The notes below the pieces were generated by a model. It was not told the DNA's origin. It saw nothing but the letters and a program-made list of their open reading frames with translations, and did not search any database. Below are positions 11,892-56,742 of a stretch of 64,000 bases of DNA, one piece after another. Every line of letters starts with the position of its first letter. Position 1 is the first letter of the stretch. The position numbers were made by a program, and so were the translations under genes. Source of the DNA: Macrostomum lignano (lineage: Eukaryota); assembly GCA_002269645.1 (NCBI GenBank), contig NIVC01000491.1, positions 372,001-436,000 of the forward strand, given 5' to 3'.

Positions 11892-12929
11892 AACCTGATT
11901 CAAGCAAAAGAAGCCTTATTCTATCCAGATAGCGATGCCGTAGGTTCTACACAAGATTTATAAAGGCCAAGTCTAAGGCATTTGCCTCTTCATTAGTAAT
12001 CAAACAACTGAAGAGAACTGGACAACTGAATTTGAAAGTTTCAGAGAAAATCCATCGAATGCCTGGCACGCATTTGCGAGGGCCAGATTCGAGGTTCGCA
12101 GCAGCGCATTTCCCTTGTCTATACTTTGCCTTCAATTCCCTTCATGCAGCCTTGGCTTCAATTGTTGTTTACTTTATCTCAGTTTTTTATTACTCTGTCT
12201 CAATTGTTAATTAATTGCAAGAATTCCTTGCTTCAATCGTCTTTTAAATCATTTCATTAATAGTTTCCCTCAATTGTAAATTTCATCTACGCATTCTTTG
12301 CTTCACTTGAAACATTTTTTCATGCATGCCTTCAATCTTCATCATTTTTTTCTGGCCAAATTCGAATATTTTAGCTATTCTTACAGATTTATAGTTTCTT
12401 GTAATGAGTTTATCGCTATGGTATGCTCGTATAATGTACTTCAACAAGTACTTACAAACAAATACTCATGAATAGTAATTACACACAAGTGTGTAGTTAA
12501 TCTAATACATGTAAAATTAAAAAATGAACTCTGTCTGTCTGTGTACAAATTTGTTCGCTACGGGCTCTATACTATAGTGTGCTTTTTCTAGTATTGAGCC
12601 GCTCTCACTCATTCATTTCCCCAAATCAAGAGGATAAGGCCAATGTACATAGCATGTATAGTGCTTTGGAATAACTTCGACTCTATTGGCGCCCCAGTAA
12701 AGAGGCTTGGTTAAAATGTCTCAACCAAACTTTTCTAGCTACCCGACAAGACTGTACTAACATATGGGCCTACCCATCCCCCCAGAACAAGGGGGCACGC
12801 CCGTGTACTTAGCAATGTAAGGTGTAAGAATAACTTCACTTCAAATGGAGATTGGACGTCACCTGATGGACAAGCAACGTATTGGTCTCCTGTCAAAGTT
12901 TTACTTAGAGAAAGAAGTGTAGCTGAAAT

Positions 12930-13385
12930 GAGTATCGAAATTCAGGTCTCCCGGCGTGCCATCTTACTCTGTCAAGAACAAAAAGTAGCAAGGAGAAATA
13001 TCTGCCCCGAAAATGGGGACTTGAACATACCGTGTTCATCGATGCGCTGCTTGATGCCACTAACGGCCAAGTTTCAGCTCAAGACTTGTGCAATAGGGTG
13101 AGATTTAAGTTTGGTTTGCGTTTTTCTATCTGCACAATGAAGAGAATTCGGCGACTGTTGGGTTAGGTTCGAACAACAACGCAGTATTGCCAGATGATCA
13201 AGTTGAAAAATCAACTCATTCGGCTATTATGGAGCGCACTGAAGCTGCAAGAGAACGACAATTTTGAGGATGCCATCTTCACCGACGAATGCAGCGTGGC
13301 TTTATCCCGCAAGACACATCAGACAGTTTTCGTCGGGTCAACTCCTCGCGACCAAAGTTTGCAACTCTGAAGCATTCACTAAAAG
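12930..13385 (+). pseudogene. Degenerate Tc1/IS630-like transposase fragment (second copy ~39953-40408)
   Basis: YCQMIKLKNQ.IRLLW...NFEDAIFTDECSV, with stops upstream. Confidence 0.7.
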
Positions 13386-13589
13386 TAAGCATCCCCTCTG
13401 ATTCGTGAACATATAAACTGCCTATATGCTGCCTATTTCAGATGGCCACGTAGGTGAAGAGAAAGAGAACAGGAGAGATGTTGCTACTAAATGCCATCAA
13501 GGATACTAGTTCCAGCTCTCATGACGAAGAGGAGGGCATTTGTATGAAAACATCATCCTTGCCCAGTGGAGCAGGTTGTTCTTAATGAA

Positions 13590-15800
13590 CATTGGGTAGT
13601 CGACCTGAGGAAGGAGTTAATCATCAGGAGGATAATAATAACAATTTGCCATCTGAATCCGTCTCCGATTCAGAGACTGATGACTATGACGACCATGAAT
13701 CTGATGTAGATCTGAGTGAGGCCTTGAAACACTGGGTAATATACGATAACATCCCACAAGCCTCTGCGACGTCTCCTGGCTGTTCTGCGCAAGAAAGATA
13801 TCCCTTCCTATTTACTTAAGAACACTACTTGACTCTACCCAGGTTGTATCAGGAATCAAACACATTGATCCAGGTAGCTACTATCATTTTGGGCTCCTGA
13901 ATGGGATAAAAAGGCTACTTGATGATGTCGGCTTTCAGAATAATGTAATCTACTAATGTATCCCACTAGTCACAGGCAACATCAACGAAATGTAAAAAAC
14001 CGATAAAAAATAACTAAAAAAAGAAAATAATAATTCCTAAGAACAACCTAATATTGCAAGTAAGGTACCCATTGAGTTTGAGACATCTGCAAATGAATCA
14101 AAATCATTAAGCCCATTGTCAGACAAATCAAGCTCTGAAAATGAGAATCAATGTTCAGGTATTTCTACTAGTAGTTTATTGATTGATGCTTTGCCAGAAA
14201 TGAGGTCTACAACTAGTGAAGTTAATGCAAATGATGATGATGATAATATCAAAGAATTTCTTCGACAATGGGTGATAGAATTCAACATCCCAGTTTATAG
14301 CCTTGATAAACTGCTTCCATGTCTAAAAAAGCAATTTCCTAATTTACCTATGCGTGGTACACTCTCATGAAAACCAACGTTTCATTGCCAATGGTATCTA
14401 TCAACTGTTTCAAATGGTCAAATTGCATACTTTGGTCTAAAAAATATTATTTAGAGAAATTGCCTTTCTACAAATCAGGCTCATTTAGTAATTTTAGTTG
14501 ATGGCCTTTCATTTGCTAAATCATCTACATCTTCATGCTGAGCAATCCTTGGACAACTTGGATCTAGTGAAACACCTTTTGTTATTGCTATTTACCAAGG
14601 AAATGTGAAACCAACAGCATCAGAGTTTATGTCTCCTGTTGAAAATGAAATTAATGAACTCATAAAGGAGCAAACCTAAATTTGAAGTATATTCTAGCTG
14701 AGACACCTACTCGATAATTATTTAAATGTACTAAAGTACATACTGCATACTATTCTTGTGACTGTTGTTTGATCCGAGGCCAAAGAGTAGAAGGCCGAAT
14801 TTTCTTTGATGAGTTTTCCATGCAGCCTTGTAGAAGTGATCAATCTTTCCGAGAAAAGGCTGATGCTCACCATCATGCTGGAAAATCTCCACTGTCACCT
14901 CTTGCTAGATTCAACATGATCATACAGCTACCTTATGACTTTATGCATCTACTTTGCCTTGGCATAATGAAGCGCATGATTGCTTTCTGGAATTGTGGCC
15001 TTCTTGGTGTATCTAGACTTACTGTAAGAGGACGTGCATCAATTTCAGAAAAATTGGAGTTAATACGGCCTTTGATACCATTTGAATTCAATAAAAAAAC
15101 AAGGCCAGTCTCCCAGTACAAACTGTGGAAGGCAACTGAATTCCGGACTTTCCTATTGTATACAGGGATATGTGAATAAAGGATCACTCATTACATTCAC
15201 GCATTTCCCGTAACTTTTGTCTGCTTTTTATTATTGCACGAGTCGTGTTCCAATACGCTCGTAATGTCCAGGGTCAAAAAAGGAAGTACCCGTTCGTTTC
15301 ATTCGAGTGTTTTTACGGAATTGCAAGCGTACTTATTCTCGAATCTTTCTGGCTTACAACCTGCATGTATTGCTTCACCTTCCAGATGACTGTGAATTAT
15401 ATGGTGCTCTGGATTCATTTAGTGCTTTTCTATTTGAAAATACATTGGGTTTCTTAAGGCGCCGTGTTAGGAGTGATAACCAAACATTTATGCAACTTGT
15501 CAACCGAATCAAAGAAGTTTCACAAATTACTACAGTAAATCTGCAAGGCACCAAGCAGAAGGGTATTGAGTTTTTCAAAGAAATTCGTGACAGCCTTCCT
15601 GATAGCATTGCATGCCAAATAACTTCAAGCCATGTTTCTTTGCCAAAGCAGTCTTCAGAAATAAGCAGCTATCCACCAAACATCAAAGGGATGCCTATGA
15701 AGGTTGCAATGGAATGATTGTGAAAATTTCAAAGATTTTTCTCCAGCTGACCATTCGACTCTTTAAGTTGTCGCTCAATGCTTCAAAAGACGGGAAAACA
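13590..15800 (+). pseudogene. Degenerate animal EnSpm/CACTA(CMC)-like transposase, copy 1, 3'-truncated
   Basis: PYDFMHLLCLGIMKRMI, WKATEFRTFLLYTG and LHVLLHLPDDCELYGALDSFSAFLFEN, broken by stops and frameshifts. Confidence 0.75.
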
Positions 15801-15806
15801 ATTTTG

Positions 15807-15926
15807 CGACGTGTAAATTCGGGCATACACTGTGTATCTGCGGGCTGCAATAGACGCATATTGACTCCGACTCGGGATAAGGAGCAGTCGTGTATTAGCG
15901 GGCATCTGTGTATTAGCGGGCAGTTG
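15807..15926 (+). repeat. ~120-bp segment homologous to 23573-23690
   Basis: CGACGTGT(A/G)AATTCGGGCATACACTGTG...TGTATTAGCGGGCAGTTG is shared, with 3 substitutions and an extra 18-bp unit. Confidence 0.9.
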
Positions 15927-15934
15927 AGTTAGGG

Positions 15935-17763
15935 CCATAGACTACTCAGCATATAGCACTATGCCAGTAGAGTGTTTAGGTATACATTCTCCTCCTTTTC
16001 CCAGTGTGGCTATGGAAAAGTAAGTCCGAGGATGCATTTCTCAGGCCGAGGCGAAGCCGAGGCCTTGAGAATATCATCCGAGGACTTTCTTTTCCATAGA
16101 CATATTTGGAAAAAGGAGGAGAAAATATTTAACCTACTGAAAGCAAAATACGCATCAATATCCAGTACAGTTAGTCTATGGCACAAGCTATGTGACTGAC
16201 TGGCTAAAGTGTTATAAATCGTCTACCTAGATGGAGCACTGAGCAGTCCATCCATTTGCATATATAATAGAACCATGGAAGACGACTTAGATCTAGTGCT
16301 ACGATATTTTGAAAGTAAAGAATCCGCTGCAACGAATCCTGCTGCTGGTAGTGATCGATTCGCTACGCTCTCGACTGACGAAATACAAGGGAAGCTGGAC
16401 GCTGCTATCCCACCAAATACGCGAAGGAAGGAACTATGGGCTGTAAGAATTTTTGACCAGTGGTTTGAGCAGCGACACAATCGAATTCTACATGGTGATA
16501 CAACTGGCCTTCTCGTGTTGAAGGAGCGTCATGAATGGAACGCTTGCGATTGGAACTATCTATTAAAGATGTTCATTCTCGAGGTGCGAAAAGTCGATGG
16601 CACTAAATACAATGCTACGACCCTTAGGGACATATTTTCCATGATGCAACACTATCTGCAGTACACGCTCAAGAAAGAACTGAATCTCTGGAAGGACGCT
16701 GCGTGCAGGGGTGCAAGAATGGCATTGGATGCTGCCATGAAAGAAGCTACTAGAGAGGGCCTAGTTCCGGGGACAAATGCGTCTAGCCCAATTCCCGCAA
16801 CTCTGGAGGAGGAGTTGTGGCAGAAGGGACGTCTTGCAACAACGTCGCCGAAATTACTGCTGTTTACGCTTGTGTTCTACCTTGGCAAGCAGTTCGCTTT
16901 GCGTGGAGGCACGGAGCTGCATGGTCTGAGATATAGCTGTGAGATCCAGTTGCAGCATGAAGACGGTCAAGAACTTCTAGTTTACTGTGAGAACAGAGCC
17001 ACGAAGACCAACAACGCTGGCATAAAGCGACGTTTTGTTCCATTGAAAACCGTTAAAGCATCTCATACTGCTGATCATGATAGATGTCTACCCTGCATCT
17101 ACAAGCTGTATGTGGACAAAAGACCGGAAAACTGTACGGTTCAGAATTTGTTCCTGGCTTGGATGCGTAGCGATGCCAGCATCCAGCAAGGCAGGTGGTA
17201 CCAAAACGCACCCGTCGGCCGGCACAGCTTGGACGGTATTGTTCGTGAATTAACGGCTCCCCTAACTGGAGTGACTGAAAGGTACACTAATCAGTCTCTA
17301 CGCAAGACTTGCGCAAGTACTCTACACCGTGCTGGCTTTGCTAGAGAGGACATCGCTCGTGTTACAGGACACTCTTCGACAGCTATTGAGCGCTATATTC
17401 AGTTTGACGTACAAGACCATGTTAAAGTATCGCATGCTCTTCAATCTGGTGGTCAGTCATCAAGTCTGTCTATTGACACCGAGCCTAAACGCTCTGTTGA
17501 AGCTATGGAACAAAGTAACGTAGTGACTGCTAATCCTGCAAAGAAAATGAGGCTTAACATCAATGGTAACACCAACACCGTTGAAATCGTTTTTGAGTGA
17601 GTGCTTACAAGACGCTTCTAAATCTTACTATTTGAACTTCCTGTTGTTGGTTTACATTTGTTAAATACAAGTGTTTATAGCAGGACTGAGAACTATTTCT
17701 CAGGCCTCGTTTGGGGACTGAGAAATGGTTCTCAGTCCTCCTACAACCGATAAATTACCATAG
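15935..17763 (+). mobile_element. Crypton-type tyrosine recombinase DNA transposon
   Basis: CCATAG direct repeats at 15935 and 17758; an alternative right end is the 10-bp GGGCCATAGA repeat at 15932/17888. Left ~150-bp imperfect hairpin (15981-16130) around GAGGCGAAGCCGAG. Right hairpin 17682-17739 with 22-bp arms matching 21/22. Single YR ORF inside. Confidence 0.75.
16275..17600 (+). CDS. Crypton (DUF3504/ZMYM-KCTD1-related) tyrosine recombinase, 441 aa, intact ORF
   Basis: FILEVRKVDGTKY, QFALRGGTE (R), TKTNNAG (K), YTNQSLRKT (HxxR position, H replaced by Q), VTGHSS (H) and IERY (Y). Confidence 0.92.
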   Translation: MEDDLDLVLRYFESKESAATNPAAGSDRFATLSTDEIQGKLDAAIPPNTRRKELWAVRIFDQWFEQRHNRILHGDTTGLLVLKERHEWNACDWNYLLKMFILEVRKVDGTKYNATTLRDIFSMMQHYLQYTLKKELNLWKDAACRGARMALDAAMKEATREGLVPGTNASSPIPATLEEELWQKGRLATTSPKLLLFTLVFYLGKQFALRGGTELHGLRYSCEIQLQHEDGQELLVYCENRATKTNNAGIKRRFVPLKTVKASHTADHDRCLPCIYKLYVDKRPENCTVQNLFLAWMRSDASIQQGRWYQNAPVGRHSLDGIVRELTAPLTGVTERYTNQSLRKTCASTLHRAGFAREDIARVTGHSSTAIERYIQFDVQDHVKVSHALQSGGQSSSLSIDTEPKRSVEAMEQSNVVTANPAKKMRLNINGNTNTVEIVFE

Positions 17764-18147
17764 AAGTTGTTGTTCCTCGGGAAAAGGATGAGACTGCGAA
17801 AGAGGCGAGAAATGCACTTTCTGTAGGTTAACACTTTTCCTTATAAAAATATACATATTAACAACCTGATGATTGACTGCAGCATTTGGGCCATAGAAAC
17901 TTAATGGGATAGCGCATTTCATATTAGGGACTATATATAAACTTAAGCTTCCCCCTTCTAGTAGAAGCAGAGCAGCAGTCTTTATGGTTAGATCGCAGAA
18001 GAATAGCGCATCGTCTCACACAGTTCCAGCAGCAGCATCGTGAGCATGTTCGACGACGACGACGACGAGATAATGTTAAGTGTGGAAGAGCAGCTCGAGC
18101 TCGAAGAACAAGTTGCTGCTGAAGAGCGGCAGGCGGAGCAACTGCAG

Positions 18148-18350
18148 ATGGAAGCTGCCGCTGCTGTTGCTACTTGTCATGAGGAGGAGTTGGAAGCTGC
18201 CGCTGCTGTTGCTACTTGTCATGAGGAGGAGTTGGAAGCTGCCGCTGCTGTTGCTACTTGTCATGAGGAGGAGTTGGAAGCTGCCGCTGCTGTTGCTACT
18301 TGTCATGAGGAGGAGTTGGAAACTGCCGCTGCTGTTACTGCTTTTCATGA
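18148..18350 (+). repeat. 42-bp coding tandem repeat (EEELEAAAAVATCH), about 4.5 copies
   Basis: Direct inspection; the repeat is in frame in ORF 18040. Confidence 0.95.
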
Positions 18351-19978
18351 GGAGCAGCAACCCAGTCGCCGGCGGAGGCTATTAGAAGATGTCAGCACGC
18401 CGCAGACGAGCAGCGCAACGCCCTCTCGGTGCATCATAGCCAATGAGACGCCGGAACCAAGGCAGCAGCGCGGCTTGCCTAACAAGCTGCCGCGATTAAT
18501 TGTCTACAGCAGCGGTAGCGACGAGGAACAGCAGCAGCATCCTGCTGACCACGTCGCCGGCTGCGGCGACCAGCCGCCGACTCTGCAGTTTATTCCGAAG
18601 GCGTCGCCCTCATTCCATACTACTGCCTCTGCTGCCGCTGCTGCTCAAGCGTCACCGAAGCCACACCTTCTACGGCAGCCTAGGATCGGCCCGTGCGGCA
18701 TCGGCGCGCCCTGGCGCTTCACCACTCGCCCTGCTGCTCCTACTGCTGCCTTCCGGTTCATGACGCCACCAGCCTCACCGAGACCTCGGTCAAGCCGCCC
18801 GCCGACGACGTTCTACCCGAGAGGTGGGTTACGTGCATTTCGCGCTCACACCTTTGCTCATGTTACATTCTCTCATATTACAGTAGTATCATTTTCACAT
18901 TTTTGTTTCCCGACGACACAGGAGCCACCGCCGCCGCCGTACCGCAGTCGAGTGCTACGCAGCGCGAGCGGGCTTTGGCCTCTGGCTACGAGCTGGCGGC
19001 CAGGGCGATGGAGGCGACAGCTGAATATAACCTCGCAGAGACGACCTGCCCGGCCGGCGAAATCCCACTGTTCCACGAAGAGGGGGAGGAACGGCAGCAG
19101 CAGCCGGCTAGCACCTCGCCGAAGGGAACGAGCTCGCGCCTTCTGGCATCGTCCGTGCCGCTGCATCCCAGCGACACCGTACCAAACGACATAATGGTTT
19201 CGGCTAATGCGAGCCGGCGTTCGCATCGTGCAATGTCGGTGATTCAGCTGTACTACGTCAAGAACGCACCCCAGATGAAGCTGGTGATCAACGGGACCTG
19301 GAGCGGCGACTTCACGACACAGTTAGCCATAGGTGAGTGAGTGAGTGTTTGCGTCGTTTCACAAGTGTCTGGAAAACTCATAACAATTATCTTCTACGTA
19401 GAACATGCGATTTGAAGAAACTCTTTAACCCATCCCCCAACGCCACCACAACAACCAACAACTACTACTACTGTATGTAATAAGGCCTGGCAGATAACGA
19501 ATTTATGCTGACTCCCGCGCACATGACTGACGCGTACGCCCCGACTCCATCTTGCCCTGTGGACAAGACACGATCGCTGTTGATATTTTTGCGATCCAAT
19601 GCCATGCACAATTCCTTAGAATTAATTGATCGCCTGCGAAATTTCTTCGCGTCTGGCTCCAGCCTGCACACCTTTGCGGTGCAGGGATGGACATGCGCCG
19701 AGATCAGGAGCGTGCGCTCAGCAGCTGCCGAATTACGACGGGTGACCATGCACGACCCACAGCCGCTATCACCGAAATCGACGACGCTTGTCTGTCCCGC
19801 GTTGTCCAACTGTACAGATGGGCTATGTCATATCCGCTGGGGAGTATGGCACCGCGACCAGACGACCCCCATCTCGTCTGCGGTAATCCACTGCTTTTGA
19901 AGCAGACCATGGATTTCTTTACAACGGTGCAACAGATGCGCAGAATTCGTGCCGAAGAGCACGTGTCACTGCTCCCCA

Positions 19979-20575
19979 ACAACAACAACAAAATACGCTG
20001 TCATGATGGTAAAAGTCAGCGTCACAGGGCGCGCTTCATGGCTTGGGCGCGAACAAAGACCGCGCCACCGGCAGTGTCCGGGGCGCCGGCGTCAGCCAGC
20101 AGACAGTCGACATAACGCCGAGTTCGCGCTTGACCTCGCCGGTAGGGTGCCTGCAGCGTGAGCAGCAGCACCTCCTGCACCGGCTGTGGGCAGTACGACT
20201 CGGCGCGGATGAGATGGCCTGCGAGCTGGAGTCGCCGACGGCGCAGTAGATCACTTGGACGTGGCAGGCCAGCGCGGCGATAGAGTGCCGCGTTGGTGAC
20301 TCGCTCGACGCCGATGTTGAAGGCGGCGCGCAGCAGACCAGCGTGCGCCGCATCGACTTGCTGTTCGAGTGAGTCCGTCAGCGTCCAGGTCTCGGCGTTG
20401 TACAGCAGGACGGTCTCGATTACCGCCTGGAACAGCGCCGCCCTCTGGCGGTCCGGTAGGGCCTCGGACTGCAGGACTGCCCTCACAGAACGAAAGGCAG
20501 CCCAGGCAAGCCCGCGGCGGCGTCGCAGGTCCTCGCGAGCGTCTGGAACCAGACCGCCGAGGTAGACGCTCCCCA
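19979..20575 (-). mobile_element. 5'-truncated RTE-clade non-LTR retrotransposon
   Basis: C-terminal RT/thumb peptide (YLG...AFR...LFQAVIETVLLYNAETWTL...RRRLQLAGHLIR), a 3' (TGT)n tail at ~19979-19992 and an 8-bp TSD GCTCCCCA at 19971-19978 and 20568-20575. Confidence 0.88.
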
Positions 20576-21549
20576 GCACCATTGTCCGGCCGAGTATGTG
20601 CGGGGCATGTCACCGCCTGCCTGTACAATGCATGCAGGTGCCTCCACGCGGCGACACAGCCGCTTCAAATACGGATCAGCCGGGGTGCAGCAATGTGGCA
20701 ACACACCGCATCGCGCTAGGTGGAAGCTGCGCGATTCAGCAGGCAATCTGCACAGCGATGCGGCAGACTGTAGTTGTGCCCTCAATCCTGTACCTATGGG
20801 GTGCCAGTGGAGTGGGCAAATCAGCAATGGTGGGCCTGTATTTTGGTCGTGAGACCGTATTCACTCCGAACCTTGACGAGAGTTTTGCCTTCGACGGTCT
20901 GCGCCTGGGCATTCATAGGTGTCTGTTCTTTGATGAGCTAAGCGTCTCGCAGGCCTCCTCGCAGCAGCTGCTTCTGCTGCTCAATCGCGATAAATTTACC
21001 ATCAACGCCAAGCACAAGGCCCACATTCTGACTGAATGGAGCGGCCCGGTGATGCTCGCTGGCCATTTCCCTCCCGCCGACCTGCCCATAGACTTTGTCA
21101 GGCGGGTCAACTCCGGCGGCCAGTGTATTCACGTGAAGCACGACATATTCCGGTGCACCGGCTGCCAGCTGCAGGATGATGCTCGCGCAGAGTCTGATTA
21201 GAGCTTGATTAGCTGGATTGACGAACAACAGGGCAGATAAACGATGACGCACTGCTTTCCCTACCCTTGAATATTCCCAAATCCCGATTCCCCTCCTAGC
21301 AATCAAGCCGGCCTTATATGCATTAGTAGTGGATTTTGTTGTTGTTGCTAGGCTGCTCACATAGTGCAGGATGCGCCGTAGAACGCAGGTAAAAACAAAA
21401 CTAGGTAATATTACTCGTCGGTCAGCAACGCAGCAAAGTTCACGTTTGGCCGTTCAAGTTCCAACAATTTCGTGTTACAGCTATTATACGAGCCACTGCA
21501 GGGACAATAAAAATTCAACTATTCTGCAGCTTTATGTGCACCTTTTGCT

Positions 21550-22481
21550 GCTTTAGCAGGCGCGAGCATTAGAGCCTCAACGCTACTGTAACTTAAGGAT
21601 AAAGTGCCAGACAAAACGTCGGAAAAGTGCTACATTCATTTTCATACATTTCCGTAAGGCGTGTTGGCACAGTAGCACTATCGCGAAATTGTGCTTAGCA
21701 ACATTCCCATAAAAAGATAATGGCACATACAAGCCATGCAGAGGCGATTAGTAGCTGTAACAGTTATACTTTCCGTTTGTTTTTGTCTGTTTTTTAGTTA
21801 TCGCTTTTAAAGGAAGGAATAGCACCAGTTCGTCTTGTTTCATACTTGAAGGGGTATTTTTGGGGCATTTCCATTGTCGTGGGTTTCTTTATTGCAATAT
21901 TGTTGTTGTCTGCAGTTTTGTTGTGGCTAACGTGCCGCGTATATACAATTTTACAGTCTCAATACCGGCGGTAGTAAGTATTAATCTCGTTGCGATTTTC
22001 GACACCATCTCTTTGAAATATATGAAACAAGCAATCTACATCTCCTTTTGAAAACCACCCTTTGGAACTACTAAACTGTATACTTTGAGTATCGATTCAA
22101 TACTTCGTTGTAGACTCACTCAGCTAGCGTACTGCTTTTAGGGGGGGGTTTAACCATAGACTATAGACCCCGGACCGTCCCTCTTCTCTACTTCGTTAGA
22201 CACACTCAGTGTACTGTTTTTAGTAGGGGGGGGTTTCAACCATAGACTATGCATCGATCGCAGACTCTAGACCCGGACCGTTCCCCTCCTCAACCACTGC
22301 AGTTCATTCTTAAAGAGGTCCAGCATTTCTGTACCCCGCCCGCTGCAAGCAACCAACAACTCGTATAATCCAGATAATTTCTGCGGCTTTAGCAGGCGCG
22401 AACATTAGAGCCATTGCCTTAACTTAACTTAACTTTAACTTAAGGATAAAGTGCCACATTCATATCCATACATTTCCGCAA
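21550..22481 (+). promoter_or_regulatory. Intergenic region with two pairs of imperfect direct repeats
   Basis: GCTTTAGCAGGCGCGA.CATTAGAGCC...AACTTAAGGATAAAGTGCCA...CATACATTTCCG.AA at 21550-21657 and 22386-22481; the second copy abuts ATG 22482. A second pair at ~22115-22187 and ~22201-22290 contains G-run-AACCATAGACTAT and CCCGGACCG. Function is inferred. Confidence 0.55.
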
Positions 22482-24801
22482 ATGTTCAGCTTTCTGCGCC
22501 TCCTCTTTGGCGACGACGCCGCAGCTGATCCAGCAGCAGCAGCAGGAGCAGCAGCAGCAGCAGCATCAGCAGCAGCAGCAACATCCACCAGCGAGCACGA
22601 GTCTGAAGCAGCTGCTCCACCAATCGCCGCCGCCGCTGAACAGGTATATTCGGCTAGTTTCTGTTGGCCACCAATTCCAGCTGCTGGCGTGCCTTGTAGC
22701 CAGCGTAACAGCCCGCTGATTTCGCCGCCGAACCGGTCGGCGGTAATAATGATTCCAACAACAGGTGAGCACGCCTTTGCCTGGAAATAATTGTGCGTGC
22801 GTGCGTGTGCGGGACAATTTTATATTCGTGCGCTCTTTCCACGTATCAGAAACTATATATATTGTTTCCTCGTCTAATAAACTCAACAATAGGCAAAACA
22901 GCAGTGCCTGCTGCTACGGATGCTGCCTCCTCGGCTACAGCTGCTGCAGGTGCATCCGCCGCCAGCGCCGATGCCAGCAACAGCAGCAGCAGCAGCAGCA
23001 AGAAGCGGTATGCAGCCTGGGAGAGCTGTCCCCCAACGTTGGGTTGGCGGTGGATGGCGGTTTTTACAGCGTAAGTCGGTCTGCGGAGGAGCCCTGCGCA
23101 CCGGGACTCGGGTCCCCACGCTCTCTGGCCACCCGCCGCAGGCCGCAAATTGGATTCCGCCGTCTACTGCCCGCCAGCGCAGGGTCAGCGCCCCGGCTGC
23201 ATGGGGCTACGCCCCCGGTCCTATTAGCTACGTCTAGCTACAATGTCCGTGACCCGAAAAAGAAAGAAAGAAAGAAAGCAAGAAGCGAGTGTGTCCTGCA
23301 GATGGATGTTCCGTTATCATGCGAATGGATGCACTTAAACGCCACTTTACGGCGAAGCATGTTGCCTGGTGCCTGGCTCGCCCCGTGAGCGCCAATGTAA
23401 AGGACACGGCTGCCGGCTGGTCTACAAAGCAGCGCGTGGACTGGCACTGGCGCGGCCTGATCCTTAGAAGTGAGCAGACCATCAGCTCGAAGAAGCATGA
23501 AAGAACCGAAACGTATTGCGAGCAATGCGCGTGCTGGTTTAGGGATAGCGACAAGCACCAGGTGAGCAGTTGCGACGTGTGAATTCGGGCATACACTGTG
23601 TATCTGCGGGCTGCCATAGACGCATATTGACTCGGACTCGGGATAAGGAGCAGTCGTGTATTAGCGGGCAGTTGTGTATTAGCAGCCAAAGCAACACCAG
23701 CGTCTGCCGACCCGCCGCCAAACGAGGCGTCCGCTATCTCCGCCGCCACTGGCATCGACGCTGCCACCGCTGCTGCCGAAAAGAAAAAGAAACGCGGCTC
23801 CCTGTCCGCGCGATTCAGACCCGATTCGCCAGCCGTGCTGCAGCTAAGAGTGCTGAGATCGCTATACTACGACCTTTCGACAGGTGTTCGCGATCCAAAC
23901 ATCGACGGCTTTGAGAAGTTGAAAGCAATCGCCGACCTGGTACTATCAAGCTTTGAGAAGATGGCGAAAGTACCATATTCGGCCTCCACAGCCGTGGACG
24001 GTGAAAATTACGACTGCAGCGATGACCAAGATGCCGCAGCAACTCTTCCGCAACCGCCGCCGCCGCCGCCGCCACCGCCGCCGCCGAAGCTGAGGCTTCT
24101 GCATGCTCGGAGTCGTCGACTACTCAGCCGCAGCCTCCAAGAGACTTTCTATTCTGTCTGGCCGACCCAAATTCCGCCGCAGACGCTCTACGCCAGACTA
24201 GTAGCAGCAGGAGCGCCCGTCACAAGTAGGAGGCGGCCCTCAGGGGCGCCCAGGAGGCGCGGACGCACCGCAGCCCTGTGGCGATCCAGAGGCCCGTCCT
24301 CTGGCCCGTCGCCGAGGACGACGAGCAGGCCGCTTCCGTGGCCCAGCTGGGCGGGAGCTGTTTTTAAGCCTGCGCCAGGCTGCTGCCCGGGTAGCCACCG
24401 CCACGCCGCTTTATGCGCGGAATACGAGGCCTCCTGGCCTCCGTCCGCCGCCTGGATTGCGAGCTCCGCCGTCGACGCCGGTCAGCCGCGGCACGACCAC
24501 CGATGGTCTCATGGCGTGGACAAGGCAGAGACAGGCCCAGGCCATAGCTGACCTGATTGTGCTGGCTGGCATCCGGCTGCACTTGTTCGCCGGGCTGCCG
24601 CCAGACCTACAGGCCCAGCTCAGGCAAGAGAGCCTGCAGTCCCGGCAAACACTTTTTGAATGGGCGGCGAACTTGGCAGCCAGGACGCTGGCCGACCAAG
24701 AGTTCAGCCGCCAACATACCGAACTGGTAGCGCGGCGATTCGCCGCGGAGCTCGGCCATGTGGACCTGCCACCGCCACTCAAGGCCGTCCTGCGAGAGTG
24801 A
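22482..24801 (+). pseudogene. Multi-exon gene of unknown function with a C2H2/BED-like zinc finger, disrupted
   Basis: ATG 22482 and a phase-compatible intron 22765-22901. CPADGC-x11-HFTAKH and CEQC motifs at 23289-23560. Further frames run to the stop at 24801, with AATAAA at ~24812. Frameshifts are needed, so the exon model is uncertain. Confidence 0.45.
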
Positions 24802-25169
24802 ACAATGCGAAAATAAACTAGATCCTTGGGATCCCAATTTTTACTTCCGTTCTAGCTGTCTGGACTCGATCTGATGGTGCGACAGGCCAATCCGGCCTCT
24901 ATTAAGCATTTCTTTTTTTTCAAAATTTTTCACCCCCCCCCCTTTTTCTCTCTCAACGCATTAAGGATGTTGCAATTTCATTGAATCAGGTCAAACTCTA
25001 CTTTGTCCTTAGGTTATTTTGTACACCGTTGCTATAACTAGTCCTTGAACTTATTTTATTCTGCATTTCTCAGCCAAATAATGACGCCTGTAATTCGCCT
25101 TCTCTTCGCCAATACTCGTACTGCATGTAACACCTTTTTGAATAAATCATCATCAACTTACCTTTTTCA

Positions 25170-25420
25170 AATAAACGCTGAAGCCGTCAGCTTCTTCCGG
25201 CTCATCTTTTAGCTGGAGGAGAGTGATGTGGCCGCAGCCTTCTGCTGCAAGCATAGGGCCGCAGTCACATCTTAGGCACTCTGTCCGCTGCTAGTATCTG
25301 GAATAGGAATTGCTCTGCTGCCTCCATGCACTCTAAGCAGCCTTCGTTGGCGCTCAGAAGTTGCACAATATGGCGCAATTGTGTCGTCAATATCATAGGA
25401 AATTAGGAAGTTTTGCCTAG
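25170..25420 (-). pseudogene. Possible hAT C-terminal dimerisation-domain remnant
   Basis: Weak peptide similarity only (DTIAPYCATSER...DVTAALCLQ versus the LAIPATSxxSER...VEALxCLQ pattern). Confidence 0.22.
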
Positions 25421-25580
25421 CCTAGGGTTAGTTAGTGGAAGCCGCCAAATTTGGCGCTTGCCTGTACTGTTGTTGCCTGGCCTGCCGCGTACGATCGCTC
25501 AGTGTACGCAAGTCTAGTTAGCCGCACTCCTCCCCTTGTGCGCTTGCTGGACCCTCTCCCCTTCTGCTCTCTCACCTAAC

Positions 25581-25679
25581 GGCCCGCCGCTAGCGGAGCC
25601 CATCCCACGCTAAAAATAGCCCGTTAACGGGACCCAGCCCACGGTGGGATGGGCTCCCTTAGCGGGGGCCAGCCCACGA
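25581..25679 (+). repeat. ~100-bp GC-rich inverted repeat, left copy (mate at 36962-37059)
   Basis: GGCCCGCCGCTAGCGGAGCCCATCCCACGCTAAAAATAGCCCG...GGGCCAGCCCAC aligns with the reverse complement of 36962-37059 at roughly 85% identity. Confidence 0.9.
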
Positions 25680-27314
25680 GCGGAGAGGGAGAGGTGGGGT
25701 GGGTGTTGGGTGAGTGTGGAACGCCAGTGCGCACTAGCGTACTAGCACTGTACTAGCAATGAAGCTAGCTGAAAACACTGCACATCCGTGACTCATTTCT
25801 CGTATATTAATGTATGCTGGATGAAGACGGCTCTTTGTCTTTCCCAACTCTCCCAAAATTAAAAAACTCCTAGAACGCATTTCGTTTTAAGCTGCAAGGA
25901 ATTGTATTCTTTAAAGAAACGCGTTTCATTCAACGTATAGTTTCTACTTTTTAATACATATCATTTATCAAACTATTTGACTCAGTTGAATCTTTAAGAT
26001 CTTGAGATTTATTCTTAATACGCTCGTAAGGCTTTCGTTATTTCTTTATTCCAAAGGTAAGCAAACGTTGGTTCTTAATTTGCATTGTACTCATTGTATT
26101 TTCTTTTATGTCTAGCTTATAATTGCAATATGCTAGGAATCTTATATTCTTCCAAAACCTTAAAGGTGGAAATATGGTCAAAGAAAAATAGTACAGGCGC
26201 AAGAAGTGAGGACGACTAGCCATCCATTTCGTTTCAAACGTAAAAGATTTAAAAAAAAACAAACTTAGCAAAGTAAGGTACTAAGCGAGATATTCTAAAA
26301 TTGACAGACAGGCTAATTTCCTAATTCGCAGAATCGCTGAGTCCCAGTTTTCTAATTTCTATAGATTGGACTTGTCCTTTAGCAGTTATCTTTATTTTCA
26401 GAATACTCGTATACTGAATCCGTTTGTAAATATTGTCAAAAAAGGCGGAAAAATAAATTTTGAATTTCCGCACAAAGTTAAAAAAATTAGGAATTTGAAC
26501 AAAATTTAAATTCACGCGGATATTCAAAATCTCACGTTCGTTAAATTCTGGCAATCTGGCGCCCCCTTTGGCACTTCATTGGCCCTGAAATACTTGAATT
26601 GTGGTTGCTGTATGATCTTATTTCCTTTTCTAGTTTAGGAAGTCAAATAAAGAGTAAAGTAGTCAAATAAATTGATCTTATGCTGGAGTACAAATAGATA
26701 CTGAATGTTAGCATTTTAAGCAAAGCGATAATATTGTTTGGAATTCTGTTTACACTAGAGCAAACTGATCTTTCGGACCCGCTCGTATTTAAGATAAAAC
26801 TTTGAAAATAAAACAAAAATGGTAGAAAAGAAACAATTAAAAAGGGATAATAATTACCCAGTGTTGGGCACGATACTCAGAAAAAGTATCGGTTAAAAGC
26901 GATACTCTGATACCCTGTCTGAAAAAATATCGCCCTTCGATACATATCGGCTGTTTTGTGATTTTAATTTACAGTTGCTCAGGTTGCACTGAAGTCGCAA
27001 TCCGCCGCAATCAACCCGCAGGTGACAGAATCCGCTGCCAGCAGACCTCATGGCTGGCTAGCCGTGGTTTGGCTACTCGGGACGCTGTTCACCTCCCCTG
27101 CTGAACGAGGCCATCGCTGATTTTGTCCGCTAAGATGGCGTTCCGCAACGATGGCCGGCCGGCGGCCACGTTCTGATGCTTGGCGGCGCCGCCTAGTGAG
27201 TCATTGCATCCTACCACAACAGATGAGCACATTCCATCCATAATTGACTCGTCTAAAACAAATAGCCCCAGTCGGAATCCATAAATCCTTATCTGATTAC
27301 AACTGTATCGTAAA

Positions 27315-27375
27315 TTCTGAATTGTACTTCTGAATTGTACTTCTGAATTGTACTTCTGAATTGTACTTCTGAATT
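27315..27375. repeat. 13-bp tandem repeat (TTCTGAATTGTAC), about 4.7 copies
   Basis: Direct inspection. Confidence 0.95.
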
Positions 27376-27792
27376 AACACCCCTCGTAAATTGAATTGCG
27401 AAGTATAAAAGTTCAGTAAAACAGAAATACTGAAGTATACTGAACTGACTAAAAATGACACTTTTAAAATATTTCGCAACAGCTGTAGCCAGGGGCGCGG
27501 ATTTAGGGGTCTGGTGGGAGCGCCACTCCTCCCAGCGCTCCCTAGGAACTTTTATTACCTGGATACCTAGGTACTTCTTCCTAGGTACTAGAATTTACCT
27601 TGGCTAGTAATCGACATACTGATTTACTTTGCTAAAATTCTAGAGTTTTTGACGCAAGCAAGGCTGGGCCGTTAAATCATTGATGAAACAAGTTACAACC
27701 TTAGAAACTGTAAATTAATATCACAAAACAGCCGACATGTATCGAAGCAATGAAACTAACCAGTCAAAAACACATTTTGCACTCTCATCCAG

Positions 27793-27985
27793 ATTCTGCC
27801 CGATCGCTACGAGGGCTTCTAGCGCGCTCTGCCGTTGCCGGAGTGCAGAGGGCGAGATTGCCGCCTGGCCACTCGGCTGCCGGCATTCTTTGTCCAGCCG
27901 GACCTGGAGCCCAGGATGTACAACGCCTATGGCCTGGCCGCTGCGATGTCATAGGGGCACCACAAACCTGCACTTGGATATCGCC
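27793..27985 (+). pseudogene. KDM3: Decayed KDM3/JMJD1-family JmjC-domain exon
   Basis: After acceptor CTCATCCAG the frame reads ILPDRYEGF*RALPLPE...[25 protein letters not shown], then after a frameshift GTTNLHLDIA. This matches the KDM3 pattern LPLPEY..R...LASRLP..FVRPDLGPKMYNAYG...GTTNLHLD. In-frame stop and frameshift present. Confidence 0.85.
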
Positions 27986-28403
27986 TGGATACTTTGGTCA
28001 CCATAGCAACATTAATAGAAAATGAGAAGCAGATGAATGTTTATTTAAAACCAGTTTGATTACTTTTATCCCAGATTTAGACTATGAAACACCCGATGGC
28101 CGATATGATACGAACTAAGTTTTGTTATTTTTCAGTTTCAACTGCTCCTGTCTTTTCGTGGTTCATATTTTCAGAATTTAACTAGCAATCAGCGCCCCCC
28201 TTGGGGAGCCAAAAATGCAGTACGAGTTTTTTTAATAAACTACATGTAGATTGTAGTGTCTCTTTGCAATAACCTCAGCAATCGCTTGTAAGCGTTGACA
28301 TCTCAGCAATTCCTCCCCCCACAAGTCTTAACATATCAAACCCCCCCCCTTGAAATCTGAGCGATGACCCCCATAAGCCTTGAAATCTTAAAAAATCTGT
28401 CAA

Positions 28404-28433
28404 CCCTAACCCTAACCCTAACCCTAACCCTAA
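28404..28433 (-). repeat. Interstitial telomeric repeat (TTAGGG)5
   Basis: Five perfect CCCTAA units on the + strand. Confidence 0.9.
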
Positions 28434-28929
28434 AGCATTGCCATTTTAGTAATTCTCCCCAAGAGTCATTATAACATTACAGCATTATAGCAATTCCTCC
28501 AAGCCTTGACATCGTAGCGATTCCCAAATGAATCTCCTAACTTCGACATGACTCTTCTTTTATATCTACTTTCATCTGTTTAAAATGACGCTTCTTCTAT
28601 TAGCGCCCCTCGTGGGGAACTAACAAAGAATGTAATAAAAAAGTGAATAAACTACATGTAGCTTCTGAATTTTACCTAGACATCTCAAAAATCCCTCATA
28701 AGCATTTACGAGTACATCTCAGTTATTCCCCGTGAGCCTTAACATCTTAGTAATTCTCCTCAAGAGTCACAGCACAGTTTCACGTGACTCTTTTTTTATT
28801 TTGAAATGACGCTACTTTTTGACATGACGCTTCTTTTTACATGATGCTTATTGATTTTTACGTAATGCTTCTATTTTTTTACATTTTTTTACTTTTTTCA
28901 TTTTTACATAAAGCTCATTTTCTTTTCTA

Positions 28930-29600
28930 CATGACGCCTCTGTTATTTTTACCGGACGCTTTTATGATTGTTTACATGACGCTTCTATGATTGTTTACAT
29001 GACGCTTATATGATTGTTTACATGACGCTTCTATGATTTTTTACATGACGCTTCTATGATTGTTTACATGACGCTTCTATGATTTTTACATGACGCTTCT
29101 ATGATTTTTACATGACGCTTCTATGATTTTTTACATGACGCTTGTATGATTTTTTACATGATGCTTCTATGACTTTTACATGACGCTTCTATGATTTTTT
29201 ACATGACGCTTCTATGATTTTTACATGACGCTTCTATGATTTTTACATGACGCTTCTATGATTGTTTACATGACGCTTCTATGATTGTTTACATGACGCT
29301 TCTATGATTTTTTACATGACGCTTCTATGATTGTTTACATGACGCTTCTATGATTTTTACATGACGCTTCTATGATTTTTTACATGACGCTTCTATGATT
29401 TTTTTACATGACGCCTATATGATTGTTTACAGGACGCTTCTATGATTTATTACATTATGCTTGTATGATTTTTTACCGGACGCTTCTATGCTTTTTTACA
29501 TGACGCTTCCATGATTGTTGACATGACGCTTCTATGATCGTTTACATGACGCTTCTATGATTGTTTGCATGACGCTTCTTTCATTTATACATGACGCTTC
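28930..29600. repeat. ~22-24-bp minisatellite (TACATGACGCTTCTATGATT(G/T)TT)
   Basis: Roughly 28 copies with variable T-run length. Confidence 0.95.
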
Positions 29601-29929
29601 TTTTTTTGCTTTTATTAGCTGTGTTTTGATATTAGAATACACATACAGGCGCAGTCCCAAGGCTTTTTGCCGAATTTTGCGGACACGTTTGTGGACAAGT
29701 CTGGCTTGAGTTTATGGTTTGACAGCCACTTTGACTTGTCATTTTCTTCTACCAAAAACCGATTAAAGGCTTTCAAACCTTTCGATAAAAGGTGCCATAA
29801 ATATTTATGCGAAGACTACATCTATATTTACTTGTATAGCTAAAGAAACTAGAACGTCAGAAGCTTCCCCTCACCATTCCCCTCTGAGGGATATAAACAA
29901 GTGCATCTTATCAGGGATAAGTAATTAGA

Positions 29930-31480
29930 AATCGTGGATTCGGATTCCAACATGAGGAACCAGGGATATAAATTTAGAAATCGTGGATTCGGATTCCGAA
30001 ATGAGGAATCAGGGATATGGAATTAAGAATCGTGGATTCAGATTCCAACATGAGGAATCAGGGATATGGATTTAGGAATTGTGGATTCGGATTCCAACAT
30101 GAGGAATCAGGGATATGGATTTAGGAATTGTGGATTCGGGTTCCAAAACGAGGAATAAGGGATAGGGATTCGGAATCGGGGATTGAGATAAAAAAATGAG
30201 CTTCTCACCGTTCTATGATAGCTGGCAGTCTTTCAAACATTTAGAAAAAGGTGCCATAAGCTCCTCTCTGCCTTATGAATTATGATATCTGACCCAGTCT
30301 TTCAAGTTTCTTGCAAAAGGTGACATATGCTTTTCTGGGAAAGGGAACTAAAAATCGTGGATTCGGATTCCAAAATGAGGAATCGGAATATGGAATTAGA
30401 AATTGTGGATTCGGGTTCCAAAATGAGGAATCAGGGATATGGAATTAAGAATCGTGGATTCGGATTCCAAAATGAGGAATCGGGGATATGGAATTAGAAA
30501 TTGTGGATTCGGGTTCCAACATGGGGAATCAGGGATATGGAATTAAGAATCGTGGATTCGGATTCCAAAATGAGGAATCGGGGATAGGGATTCGGAATCG
30601 GGGATTGAGATTAAAAAATGAGCTTCTCACGGTTCTATGATAGCTGGCAGTCTTTCAAACATTTAGAAAAAGGTGCCATAAGCTCCTCTCTGCCTTATGA
30701 ATTATGATAGACGATCCAGTCTTTCAAGTTTCTTGCAAAAGGTGCCATATGCCCTTCTGGAAAGGGAATTAAGAATCGTGGATTCGGATTCCAACATGAG
30801 GAATCAGGGATATTGAATTAGGAATCGTGGATTCGGATTCCAACATGAGGAATCAGGGATATGGATTTAGGAATTGTGGATTCGGATTCCAACATGAGGA
30901 ATCAGGGATAGGGATTTAGGAATTGTGGATTCGGATTCCAAAATGAGGAATCAGGGATATGGAATTAGGAATCGTGGATTCGGATTCCAACATGAGGAAT
31001 CAGGGATATGGAATTAGGAATCGTGGATTCAGATTCCAACATGAGGAATCAGGGATATGGAATTAGAAATTGTGGATTCGGGTTCCAAAATGAGGAATCA
31101 GGGATATGGAATTAGAAATTGTGGATTCGGATTCCAACATGAGGAATCAGGGATATGGATTTAGGAATCGTGGATTCGGGTTCCAAAACGAGGAATAAGG
31201 GATAGGGATTCGGAATCGGGGATTGAAATTAAAAAATGAGCTTCTCACGGTTCTATGATAGCTGACAGTCTTTCAAACATTTAGAAAAAGGTGCCATAAC
31301 AAGCTCCTCTCTGCCTTATGAATTATGATAGATGATCCAGTCTTTCAAACGTTTAGAAAAAGGTGCCATAAGCTCCTCTCTGCCTTATGAATTATGATAT
31401 CTGACCCAGTCTTTCAAGTTTCTCGCAAAAGGTGCCATATGCCCTTCTGGGAAAGGGAATTAAGAATCGTGGATTGAGAT
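29930..31480. repeat. 49-bp satellite with a recurring ~185-bp spacer (higher-order repeat)
   Basis: Unit AATCGTGGATTCGGATTCCAACATGAGGAATCAGGGATATGGAATTAGG. The spacer containing ATGAGCTTCTCAC...AAAAGGTGCCATA recurs at ~30165, ~30585 and ~31200. Confidence 0.95.
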
Positions 31481-32188
31481 TAAAAATGAGCTTTTCTAGG
31501 TTCTATGATTTCTGGCAGTCTTTCAAACATTTAGACATTCAAACATTAAACATCAAATATTGTTTCATACATTATATATACTACACCTTGTGGGATTACA
31601 CGCAGGTGCGGTTTTAGTTGGGGGGGGGGGTTAAAGGCCTATTCAAAGGCTTAATAAACTTCATTAGGAAGATTTCCGTCTGCGAAAACTCTGATTCCCG
31701 CCCTCATGCGCCCTATCTCCCCCCTCCCCCCCTACTCCTGTAGGTTAGGGTGATGAAAGATCAGAAGAGTGATATACTGTAAAGGAGAGGATCGCGAGAT
31801 AGGACAATAGGTAGAGATACAGACTACCTATAGGGTAGGACGAGAGTAGCATGACTGAATGGCCTGGAGGAAGGTGATAAAAAGCGATAAAAGCGATATG
31901 GGCGATTCTGTGTGGCAACATAACTCATCACTAACAGTGCATCGAGTGGGTTAAAGATTAGGACAAAGGCATTACACAATTAAGTAGTAAAAGTAAATCA
32001 TAACTCAATTATAATAACTTCGTAAATCTCAGCAACATCGAAAAGTCGCCATCACAGAAGTCTGTGGTCGTCACTTTTGAAAGTGCAGGTGAAGTCTCTC
32101 AATCTTTGCGAGTGACGCAACGCCACGCGGCAGACGTGAGTTGAGGAATGAAGTGGGGAGCGGTGTGCGAGGGTTGAACGGATTAAAG

Positions 32189-32386
32189 CAGCGGTTCTCA
32201 ACCTTTTTTCAGGCGACCCCAATTTATTCACTTGCATCATTTTTAATGTTCGCGACCCCTTTTAAAATTAATATACATGTAATGCATTATTATGTATGAC
32301 AACTCACACATTTCTTCGTGCTGCGACCCCCAGAAAATGGTCACGCAACCCCACTGGGGTCGCGACCCATAGATTGAGAACCACTG
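32189..32386. mobile_element. hAT (Charlie-like) MITE, 198 bp
   Basis: TIRs CAGCGGTTCTCAACC and GATTGAGAACCACTG, with a perfect 8-bp TSD GATTAAAG at 32181-32188 and 32387-32394. Confidence 0.92.
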
Positions 32387-32694
32387 GATTAAAGCTACCT
32401 TGATTAGTTTATATCATATCTTTTATTTATAATATTTTAACTCACTCACTAATAATATATTACTCTCTGGCGCATAGAGTGGCGACTTTTCAATGTTGCT
32501 GAGTAACGATATTTAGTAGATCCTGAACTCTCAGCAAACAGTGATCTAGATGGAGTATACCTAATTGAAAAATAATCAATAACAAAACAATCAACAATAA
32601 CAAGTCCGAAAATGACACTTTTGATTTTTATAGTGCCAAATAGATATAAATCTGCGCTGATCCCTGAAGCCATGCCTTAAAGCCCAAAAACGCT

Positions 32695-36700: not shown

Positions 36701-36961
36701 ATGTGCCAACGAGCGTAGAAGTGGCAGCATATATCAGCTTGCTACTTCTGGGCGCCAAGTTTAATATACCGGCGCCAATTTCAGCCTTTGGGCGCCAATT
36801 TTAGCGCCCTGGCAAGGTCAATGCATTTAGTTCTCACTCAATGGAGCCGAAAAAAAAGTTTTTTTTCTATTTTGAATTAGTGCCATGTATCTTGACAACC
36901 AATGCGAGTCAAGTTCTGGCGTCTGCTTCTCCACAGCCCCGCAATGACATATCCTAACCAT

Positions 36962-37059
36962 TGTGGGCTGGCCCGCGCTAAGGGAGCCCACCCCACCGTG
37001 GGGCGGACCCCGCTAACGGGCTATTTTTAGCGTGGGATGGGCTCCGCTAACGGGCGGCC
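36962..37059 (-). repeat. ~100-bp GC-rich inverted repeat, right copy (mate at 25581-25679)
   Basis: Reverse complement aligns to 25581-25679. Confidence 0.9.

Positions 37060-54642: not shown

Positions 54643-55993
<1,351 letters not shown>

Positions 55994-56525: not shown

Positions 56526-56742
<217 letters not shown>

Follow-up and report, generated by a model that had tools for sequence, protein, structure and literature searches.

The 64,000-nucleotide stretch of Macrostomum lignano contig NIVC01000491.1 analysed here (the window) carries, within 15935-24820, a Crypton tyrosine recombinase (YR), an SF3-type helicase gene and a zinc-finger gene, and the reported co-orientation of these genes on the + strand was confirmed. 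The locus raises the question of whether the three travel as one unit, as an earlier note on this DNA had proposed, or whether an independent Crypton landed beside a Rep element. We found that a two-gene mobile element is represented in the window by a dead copy that starts at 15804, ends at about 38732 and has an unrelated Crypton in its left end. The layout is as follows.

12482-15806, + strand: left flank; its duplicate (99.2%) lies to the right, at 39505-42830, and runs on uninterrupted
15804-15979, + strand: left terminus, which starts with TTG, mirrors the right end as an imperfect inverted copy and has short subterminal repeats
15980-17831, + strand: nested Crypton, 1.85 kb, self-contained, 176 bp inside the host element's left end
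17832-18045, + strand: remaining left region, containing a TATA-like site around 17934
18046-21201, + strand: SF3 helicase gene, spliced, Rep/E1-like, broken; predicted introns 18824-18921 and 19333-19484
19985-20567, - strand: LINE-like 3' fragment (presumably RTE-type) inside the helicase gene; 8-bp target duplication, dispersed copies
21202-22481, no strand: intergenic spacer with CCATAGAC motifs, 97% conserved in close copies
22482-24209, + strand: 5' part of the zinc-finger/tyrosine-recombinase gene, spliced; catalytic part missing here
23008-23276, no strand: 269-bp dispersed repeat in a zinc-finger exon; 10-bp target duplication
23570-23683, + strand: second, partial left-terminus copy, intronic
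24210-38287, no strand: unrelated nested inserts and satellites, including tandem arrays, replacing the 3' part of the recombinase
38288-38732, + strand: right terminal region, ending CAA, with a possible extension to 38746; 95% match to the right end of copies C2956 and C3789

The Crypton is an independent insertion

The nested 1.85-kb element is a straightforward DUF3504-type Crypton, multi-copy and with discrete ends. Its recombinase frame (16218-17600; ATG at 16275) is intact, as the earlier note had stated, and matches PF12012 with an E value of 4.7e-21 (75.9 bits; cut-off, 29.7). A hairpin lies at each end. We recovered 19 further near-full copies, 96 to 99% identical; they occupy 15 distinct sites whose flanks are unrelated, and their junctions place the Crypton at 15980-17831 rather than from 15935 to 17763 or 17897 as first suggested. 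The right end is TTAA in 13 of the 15 copies in which it could be anchored, while the left targets are TTAA-like and variable. Neither DNA nor protein of the host element was present within 1.25 kb of any of the 19 other near-full copies, and the helicase copies closest to that of the window are without Crypton. Crypton copies have unrelated flanks and helicase copies occur without a Crypton, the observations that the earlier note had named as refuting its proposal. The proposal that the Crypton YR, the helicase and the zinc finger move as one unit is therefore wrong, and the alternative is borne out.

The window copy of the host element is damaged

The left edge seen near 15807 proved to be where the helicase-recombinase element truly begins, as judged from the terminus table and from the right end, which matches it in inverted orientation (82% over 34 nt, E 7.8e-7); the flanking gene is interrupted precisely at this terminus. 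The roughly 100-bp sequence reported at the left edge and again inside corresponds to a repeat pair, 15804-15922 and 23570-23688, that is 94% identical. Its second copy has only four matches genome-wide, all within the helicase-recombinase family. We rejected an LTR reading of the 119-bp repeat, because this inner copy sits in an intron and the element actually ends on the right at 38732. The CCATAG motif (CCATAGAC) is indeed enriched far above chance (19 occurrences in the window versus 1.13 expected). Of these occurrences, however, 12 fall outside 15935-24820, and the motif therefore does not mark the ends of this element. It is a motif found genome-wide, with 27 occurrences in 330 kb of control DNA and 0.4 to 1.1 per kb in these elements, and was discarded as a boundary marker.

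Both host genes were recognized correctly in kind, but neither is whole. The helicase gene has a spliced layout and an SF3-type frame at 20566-21201 but is broken by a frameshift and by the LINE-like piece, which is missing from three close copies; the helicase exon is open in relatives. Similarly, the zinc-finger exon (23253-23582) is real, but its gene is broken by the 269-bp repeat and by a deletion at 23683. The gene does not end at the AATAAA at 24812, as had been claimed: the part that it shares with other copies extends no further than 24209, and the signal lies in unrelated DNA (24210-24812). Within 24210-38300 we found no match to the element proteins or to the 3' region of C2956, and no recombinase remnant. 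Upstream of the helicase, 17901-17935, and the sequence from 17934 onward, are common to the copy represented by C2956, C3789 and C796. An intron of one relative was joined in two of four sequencing runs, both of which are only guessed to be RNA; among the runs containing the helicase, none is recorded as RNA.

Complete relatives pair the helicase with another recombinase

In C2956 and C3789, the zinc-finger gene runs on into a second tyrosine recombinase, unrelated to that of the Crypton. The idea that the helicase travels with a tyrosine recombinase thus stands, but the wrong enzyme had been paired with it: the true partner is the element's own downstream, zinc-finger-fused recombinase and not the Crypton YR. 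Helicase and recombinase occur together in the same stretch at 17 of the 27 helicase loci examined, in families that are only 20 to 50% identical, with the genes in tandem, convergent or distant (C2956, C3789 and C796, which have common flanks, are one locus in this count). The other 10 had no recombinase in the 10 to 20 kb examined; they include 2 truncated copies and 7 of the larger family D. Conversely, a helicase was absent from the stretches around 15 recombinase loci, among them C709 and C1567, for which 11 to 12 kb upstream was examined; recombinase-only forms therefore exist. Over seven loci, the pairwise identities of the two proteins correlate (rho 0.80; 60 of 5040 permutations), while within the A/B group the helicase and recombinase distances disagree, and related copies share labels.

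Discrete mobile units were evident from close pairs with differing flanks: C957 and C1267 are 98.1% identical across 8.2 kb, and C150 and C283 are 96 to 98% identical across about 8 kb. Complete 8-kb copies have two genes and common ends, TTG...CAA. With terminus anchors set by eye to within about 6 nt, TTG was found at nine of nine left ends and CAA at eight of nine right ends, together with subterminal inverted motifs. No short target duplication was seen where both element ends are known. Run X6 contains a left flank distinct from those of the three assembled family-B sites. Copy numbers are low. The element genes are under purifying selection, with dN/dS values of 0.10 to 0.21 in three comparisons and dS saturated in a fourth (the set omits the row for the window versus C1024 because of a frame slip). 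Taken as a whole, we consider it very likely that this is a genuine helicase-plus-recombinase element.

The earlier note had recognized no capsid gene, and none is evident in the complete 8-kb copies either: those of families B and C leave no frame for major or minor capsid proteins or a packaging ATPase, and the only further non-overlapping long frame in such copies is a 149-aa spacer frame. Family D exceeds 20 kb and has extra, unassigned frames; eight frames of one copy gave no capsid match in Pfam, a search by which divergent capsids can be missed.

An E1-like helicase and a distinct tyrosine recombinase

The helicase alignment contains GxSGVGK (Walker A), FxDE (Walker B), INxK (motif B') and FxRR (arginine finger), and motif C reads AGH. 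Two weak structural models were obtained (pLDDT 52.7 and 47.7). The top Foldseek match of the helicase was papillomavirus E1 (2.8e-7), BFVD matches were CRESS Rep and parvovirus NS1, and Atlas Rep clusters were matched at 0.94, while a wide structure search placed generic AAA+ proteins above E1. By its motifs and structural matches, the helicase is of the SF3/AAA+ type, with an E1/CRESS-Rep-like fold. For the N-terminal domain (the model with pLDDT 47.7), the best match was to generic ferredoxin-like domains (Z 6.2, rmsd 2.4, 63 aligned); there was no viral match at E<=0.001, and an HUH fold was not singled out. Neither an HUH motif nor YxxK was found at the expected places in four families, with positions assigned by eye. 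Protein searches with the exon and the alignment, which were word-based and length-limited, returned no helicase relatives outside the genome. PDB sequence searches gave nothing significant and PHROGs nothing informative, and scanning metagenomes and viral contigs for such loci with three single proteins was likewise negative.

In the recombinase, the catalytic R, K, R and Y are invariant in 13 of 13 aligned sequences. Both catalytic His positions carry other residues in the recombinases of this genome, whereas six of seven outside relatives retain the second His. Atlas clusters were matched at 0.97 to 0.98, one set having PF00589 on 15% of its members, and profile match P0011 carries PF00589 at 1.1e-7. 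We found no match to DUF3504 or to a Pfam captain domain, and hhalign against the Crypton recombinase gave a probability of 0.1. As judged from its sequence, the element's own enzyme would be a tyrosine recombinase with an N-terminal zinc finger, unrelated to that of the Crypton.

How the element may move and multiply

The best overall explanation, and in our view a probable one, is a capsid-less YR transposon amplified as a circle by its own helicase. The zinc-finger tyrosine recombinase would bind the subterminal repeats and exchange strands beside TTG/CAA, likely excising the element as a circle and later reinserting it. Amplification of the excised circle would likely fall to host polymerases, enabled by the E1/Rep-like SF3 helicase, whose N-terminal domain would bind an origin and, as with E1 and large T, not nick it. 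This cycle of excision, amplification and reinsertion seems to us slightly better than an even prospect. More tentatively, and with the balance somewhat against so broad a statement, these elements could form a new group of animal DNA transposons: capsid-less, integrating, self-amplifying plasmids that combine a zinc-finger YR with a nuclease-dead E1-like SF3 helicase and whose ends serve as Crypton landing sites.

Alternatively, the element could be the integrated replication-integration module of a polinton-like or other small DNA virus, or a helper-packaged satellite, its capsid lost or supplied in trans. A tyrosine recombinase and an SF3 helicase are common in the gene sets of polinton-like viruses (PMC5499653), and end modules of this kind look mobile (PMC11296320). 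The fold of the helicase is viral, and the size and extra frames of family D would suit such an origin. We nevertheless hold it unlikely: apart from the spacer frame the complete copies have no further long frame that does not overlap the two genes, spliceosomal-type introns interrupt these genes, neither a primase nor a polymerase domain was seen, the family D frames lack a Pfam capsid match (though divergent capsids can escape), and the scans of viral contigs and metagenomes were empty.

Slightly less probable still is that the helicase acts in transposition itself, unwinding DNA for copy-out or target capture instead of replicating a free circle, with long flanking duplications as its products. 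Long direct duplications do flank two copies (126 bp at C1024 and 3.3 kb in the window), and catalytic HUH residues are not visible. However, the ends of C957 and C150 are without short duplication and junction reads contained no long one, about 770 bp of other repeats separate the element's right end in the window from the right-hand flank duplicate, and the proteins nearest to the helicase in structure are replicative helicases that load at origins.

Crypton-like sequences do occur in or near helicase-recombinase elements more often than expected, at 7 sites in approximately 717 kb, window excluded, versus the 0.34 that follow from at least 362 DUF3504 candidates per 764 Mb. When the comparison is made only with the 33 control stretches, which were hand-picked positions, many on contigs of earlier match lists, the enrichment by length is not significant (0 in 330 kb versus 7 in 717 kb, p 0.07). 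That the Crypton recombinase mobilizes the helicase and zinc-finger genes as cargo is nonetheless very improbable and is refuted by left ends without a Crypton (C150 versus C283, C1651 versus C1024). Also against it, the Cryptons neighbouring other copies are of different families (29 to 54% identical to the window's) at different positions, the 1.25 kb around each of the 19 other copies is empty of the element, and the element has a recombinase of its own.

Comparison with known systems

We favour the self-amplifying transposon, and it differs from each system that it resembles. Starships are YR-mobilized elements with other genes on board; the present element is about 8 kb, with a fixed two-gene content in which the recombinase is not the first gene and has no captain Pfam match. 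CRESS-virus Rep, parvovirus NS1 and papillomavirus E1 likewise have an SF3 fold after an alpha/beta domain. The absence of a visible HUH or catalytic Tyr motif sets the host helicase apart from CRESS Rep and is E1-like, not Rep-like; unlike its viral counterparts, its gene is stably linked to a recombinase in a bounded chromosomal element.

Cryptons are also eukaryotic tyrosine-recombinase DNA elements, for which circular excision is proposed (Kojima and Jurka 2011, PMC3212892); the word "helicase" has no occurrence in that paper. The host element differs by a YR with an N-terminal zinc finger and no DUF3504 match, by imperfect inverted ends and by a second conserved gene, the SF3 helicase, so that the YR is not its sole core gene. 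Polinton-like viruses and transpovirons similarly pair a replication with an integration module between inverted ends (PMC5499653, PMC11296320, bioRxiv 10.64898/2026.10.13.758929 and 10.64898/2026.06.19.733378). Transpovirons are about 7 kb and capsid-less with an SF1 (Tlr1-like) helicase, as opposed to SF3/AAA+ here, and polinton-like viruses pair the YR with PolA and AEP replicases, whereas the host element has an E1/Rep-like helicase and spliced genes, and neither a primase or PolA domain nor a capsid or packaging ATPase was seen in it. Helitrons and Replitrons (Replitron: PMC9977147, PMC10288648) are eukaryotic DNA elements with Rep-related proteins too, but they transpose by an active HUH nuclease instead of a recombinase with an SF3 helicase, and Replitrons are without a helicase according to PMC9977147. 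We found no description of a recombinase paired with an SF3 helicase in the literature searched, which did not extend to Repbase Reports (cited for CryptonV) or subscription journals.

Significance

Recombinase transposons excise conservatively, and how their copies increase is an open question; active Cryptons were observed to excise and also to gain copies (PMC9977147). If our reading is true, an element with its own replicative helicase would answer this question directly, and testably, in one lineage. The combination of a recombinase with an SF3 helicase would be a further design beside the eukaryotic transposon groups in Repbase as of 2018, and it would link animal transposons to the E1, large-T and Rep replicons of small DNA viruses. 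The element would be a counterpart, without a capsid, to the replicons of small DNA tumour viruses. Related zinc-finger recombinases are present in other data sets, and the group may therefore extend beyond this genome.

A self-contained Crypton nested in the host element

The earlier note had read 15935..24820 as a candidate composite unit of a Crypton tyrosine recombinase (YR), a Rep-helicase and a zinc-finger gene. The components it named are present, namely a DUF3504 recombinase of 460 codons, a helicase frame whose Walker-motif exon spans 20566-21201, an exon encoding a zinc finger, and a repeat of 119 bp at 15804 and 23570. However, the helicase had been paired with the wrong recombinase. 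Searching the genome with window 15700-18100, we found at least 19 near-full Crypton copies elsewhere (96-99% identity), with homology stopping at 15976-15980 and 17831. The flanks of the other copies represented 15 distinct sites, none resembling those in the window, and no element DNA or protein was found within 1.25 kb of the other near-full copies. With these copies at unrelated flanks, and with the closest copies of the helicase region (contigs C2956, C3789 and C796, judged to be one locus by their common flanks) lacking the Crypton, the Crypton is independent of the helicase element, in agreement with the alternative of a self-contained transposon that the same note had offered. It is an ordinary member of the Cryptons as these are described in PMC3212892.

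The motif CCATAGAC is indeed over-represented (19 in the window versus 1.13 expected), but the excess spans the whole window, with 12 sites outside 15935-24820. It is enriched genome-wide, with a density 5-13x that of control DNA in both kinds of YR element, and is possibly a host-factor site.

Extent and decay of the window copy

The C2956/C3789/C796 locus matched the window from 17934 to 24209, minus two insertions, and the match resumed at 38288-38746. Because the right end seen at this locus recurs, inverted and imperfectly, at window 15804-15979 and a flanking gene is interrupted at 15803, we place the limits of the element at 15804 and about 38732; the Crypton lies 176 bp in from the left end. 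No trace of the remainder of the element was found in 24210-38287. The helicase gene is disrupted by a LINE-like piece and a frameshift, the second (zinc-finger) gene by a 269-bp repeat and a deletion; this copy is dead. An intron contains part of a second left end. Large satellite and microsatellite arrays (periods 23, 49, 20 and 4 bp) occupy 28799-36703, within the element, and 54644-58329. The element's target consists of decayed transposase-like frames (weak DUF4218 match) at 14041-15803, duplicated near 41000-42830. Long direct duplications surround two element copies:

Window 12482-15806 and 39505-42830: 3.3-kb direct duplication
C1024 126154 and 137063 (loci L042/L043): 126-bp direct duplication, directly adjoining both element termini

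The helicase and recombinase genes form one mobile unit

In C2956/C3789, and at divergent loci too, the zinc-finger gene runs on into a recombinase domain that has no relation to the enzyme of the Crypton, and it is predicted to be the element's own recombinase gene. A profile built from nine recombinase frames picked out 12 of 1.84 billion proteins; the architecture of zinc finger plus recombinase recurs in four of these, and one matched PF00589 (1.1e-7). R, H-K, R and Y were invariant in 13/13 aligned recombinases, and both His positions are substituted in the copies of this genome. The Atlas pointed to integrase-like clusters. Proteins P0003, P0004, P0005 and P0010, on short public contigs, are zinc-finger tyrosine recombinases that carry a complete R-K-R-H-Y set and match no integrase in Pfam. 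The gene opens with a short exon (window 22482 onward; L043 2842; L109 905), whose N-terminal F.FLRLLFG.D-like motif, kept across families, may be a targeting helix.

The helicase has Walker A, Walker B, B' and an arginine finger, with conserved cysteines ahead of the ATPase. A weak model of an open exon (pLDDT 52.7) gave papillomavirus E1 as top Foldseek match (2.8e-7); a viral library yielded CRESS Reps together with parvovirus NS1, and generic AAA+ proteins ranked first in a wide search. No HUH or catalytic Tyr was visible by eye in the aligned N-terminal domain. Since this domain, folded alone, matched only generic ferredoxin-like structures (Z up to 6.2), an HUH origin is no more than a possibility. 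Protein searches found no helicase relative outside this genome.

The two genes form a mobile unit, for which content, ends, dispersal and selection have been shown. C957 and C1267 have 8.2 kb in common at 98.1%, and C150 and C283 about 8 kb, with different flanks in each pair. Both complete element types contain two genes only, leaving aside frames that overlap and a single 149-aa frame in the spacer. Left ends begin TTG in 9/9 cases and right ends close with CAA in 8/9; inverted motifs lie in subterminal positions, and short duplications are absent. Sequencing run X6 shows a left flank not among the three assembled family B sites. A recombinase lay in the stretch covered at 17 of the 27 helicase loci examined; of the other 10, two were truncated and seven belonged to the larger family D, for which the stretches covered only 10-20 kb. 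Recombinase-only forms or fragments also exist, since a helicase was absent from the vicinity of 15 recombinase loci. Helicase and recombinase distances correlated (rho 0.80; 60 of 5040 permutations), driven mainly by one deep split, with swaps within the A/B group. dN/dS was 0.10-0.21 in three comparisons, with dS saturated in a fourth and a fifth excluded for a frame slip. One helicase intron was joined in contigs from two of four runs, the RNA nature of both being a guess.

Family D (L193-L199 on C157, L200-L202 on C2367, L117-L120 on C267) exceeds 20 kb and carries, in rearranged orders, the helicase, a zinc-finger recombinase encoded by a spliced gene, another zinc-finger gene and several unassigned frames. 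At L036-L039 (C2956 53900-82400), three related units (A', a recombinase-only unit and A) stand in tandem, with a piggyBac-like transposase (PF13843) and several retroelement insertions.

Cryptons recur in and near element ends

Different Cryptons lay inside two of nine other left ends examined (C283 and C1024). Cryptons were found in or near element ends at:

L115 (C283 522751-524583)
L042 (C1024 126364-127595)
L114, L110, L126, L220, L256

These families are only 29-54% identical to the window's Crypton. These are seven sites in about 717 kb, whereas 33 control stretches contained none (p 0.07 by length); a genome-wide lower bound would lead one to expect 0.34 (Poisson 8e-8, or 0.002 at five times higher true density). 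An eighth site, at C1938, is not included in this count. DUF3504 candidates number at least 362 genome-wide, often several on one contig. This recurrence would account for the Crypton beside the helicase gene in the window, and targeting of element ends or a common insertion niche would both explain it.

Relation to known systems

From general YR and SF3 biology, the recombinase would bring the two element ends into synapsis and free a circle, the helicase would load at an origin and unwind it for host polymerases without nicking, and circles would reinsert. The long flanking duplications could result from aberrant insertion or from the helicase taking part in the insertion step.

The host element falls outside the described Cryptons, transpovirons and HUH transposons, as do its complete 8-kb copies outside the PLVs. 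Its closest likeness is the PLV YR plus helicase module, as described in PMC5499653, PMC11296320 and two 2026 preprints, from which it differs in being without capsid, primase or polymerase. The literature searched gave no description of this element; Repbase Reports, outside that search, could hold one. The composite first proposed, wrong in its parts, led to a helicase-plus-recombinase element family that is real. This family belongs among the YR DNA transposons, and it is possible, if somewhat doubtful, that it merits a group of its own.
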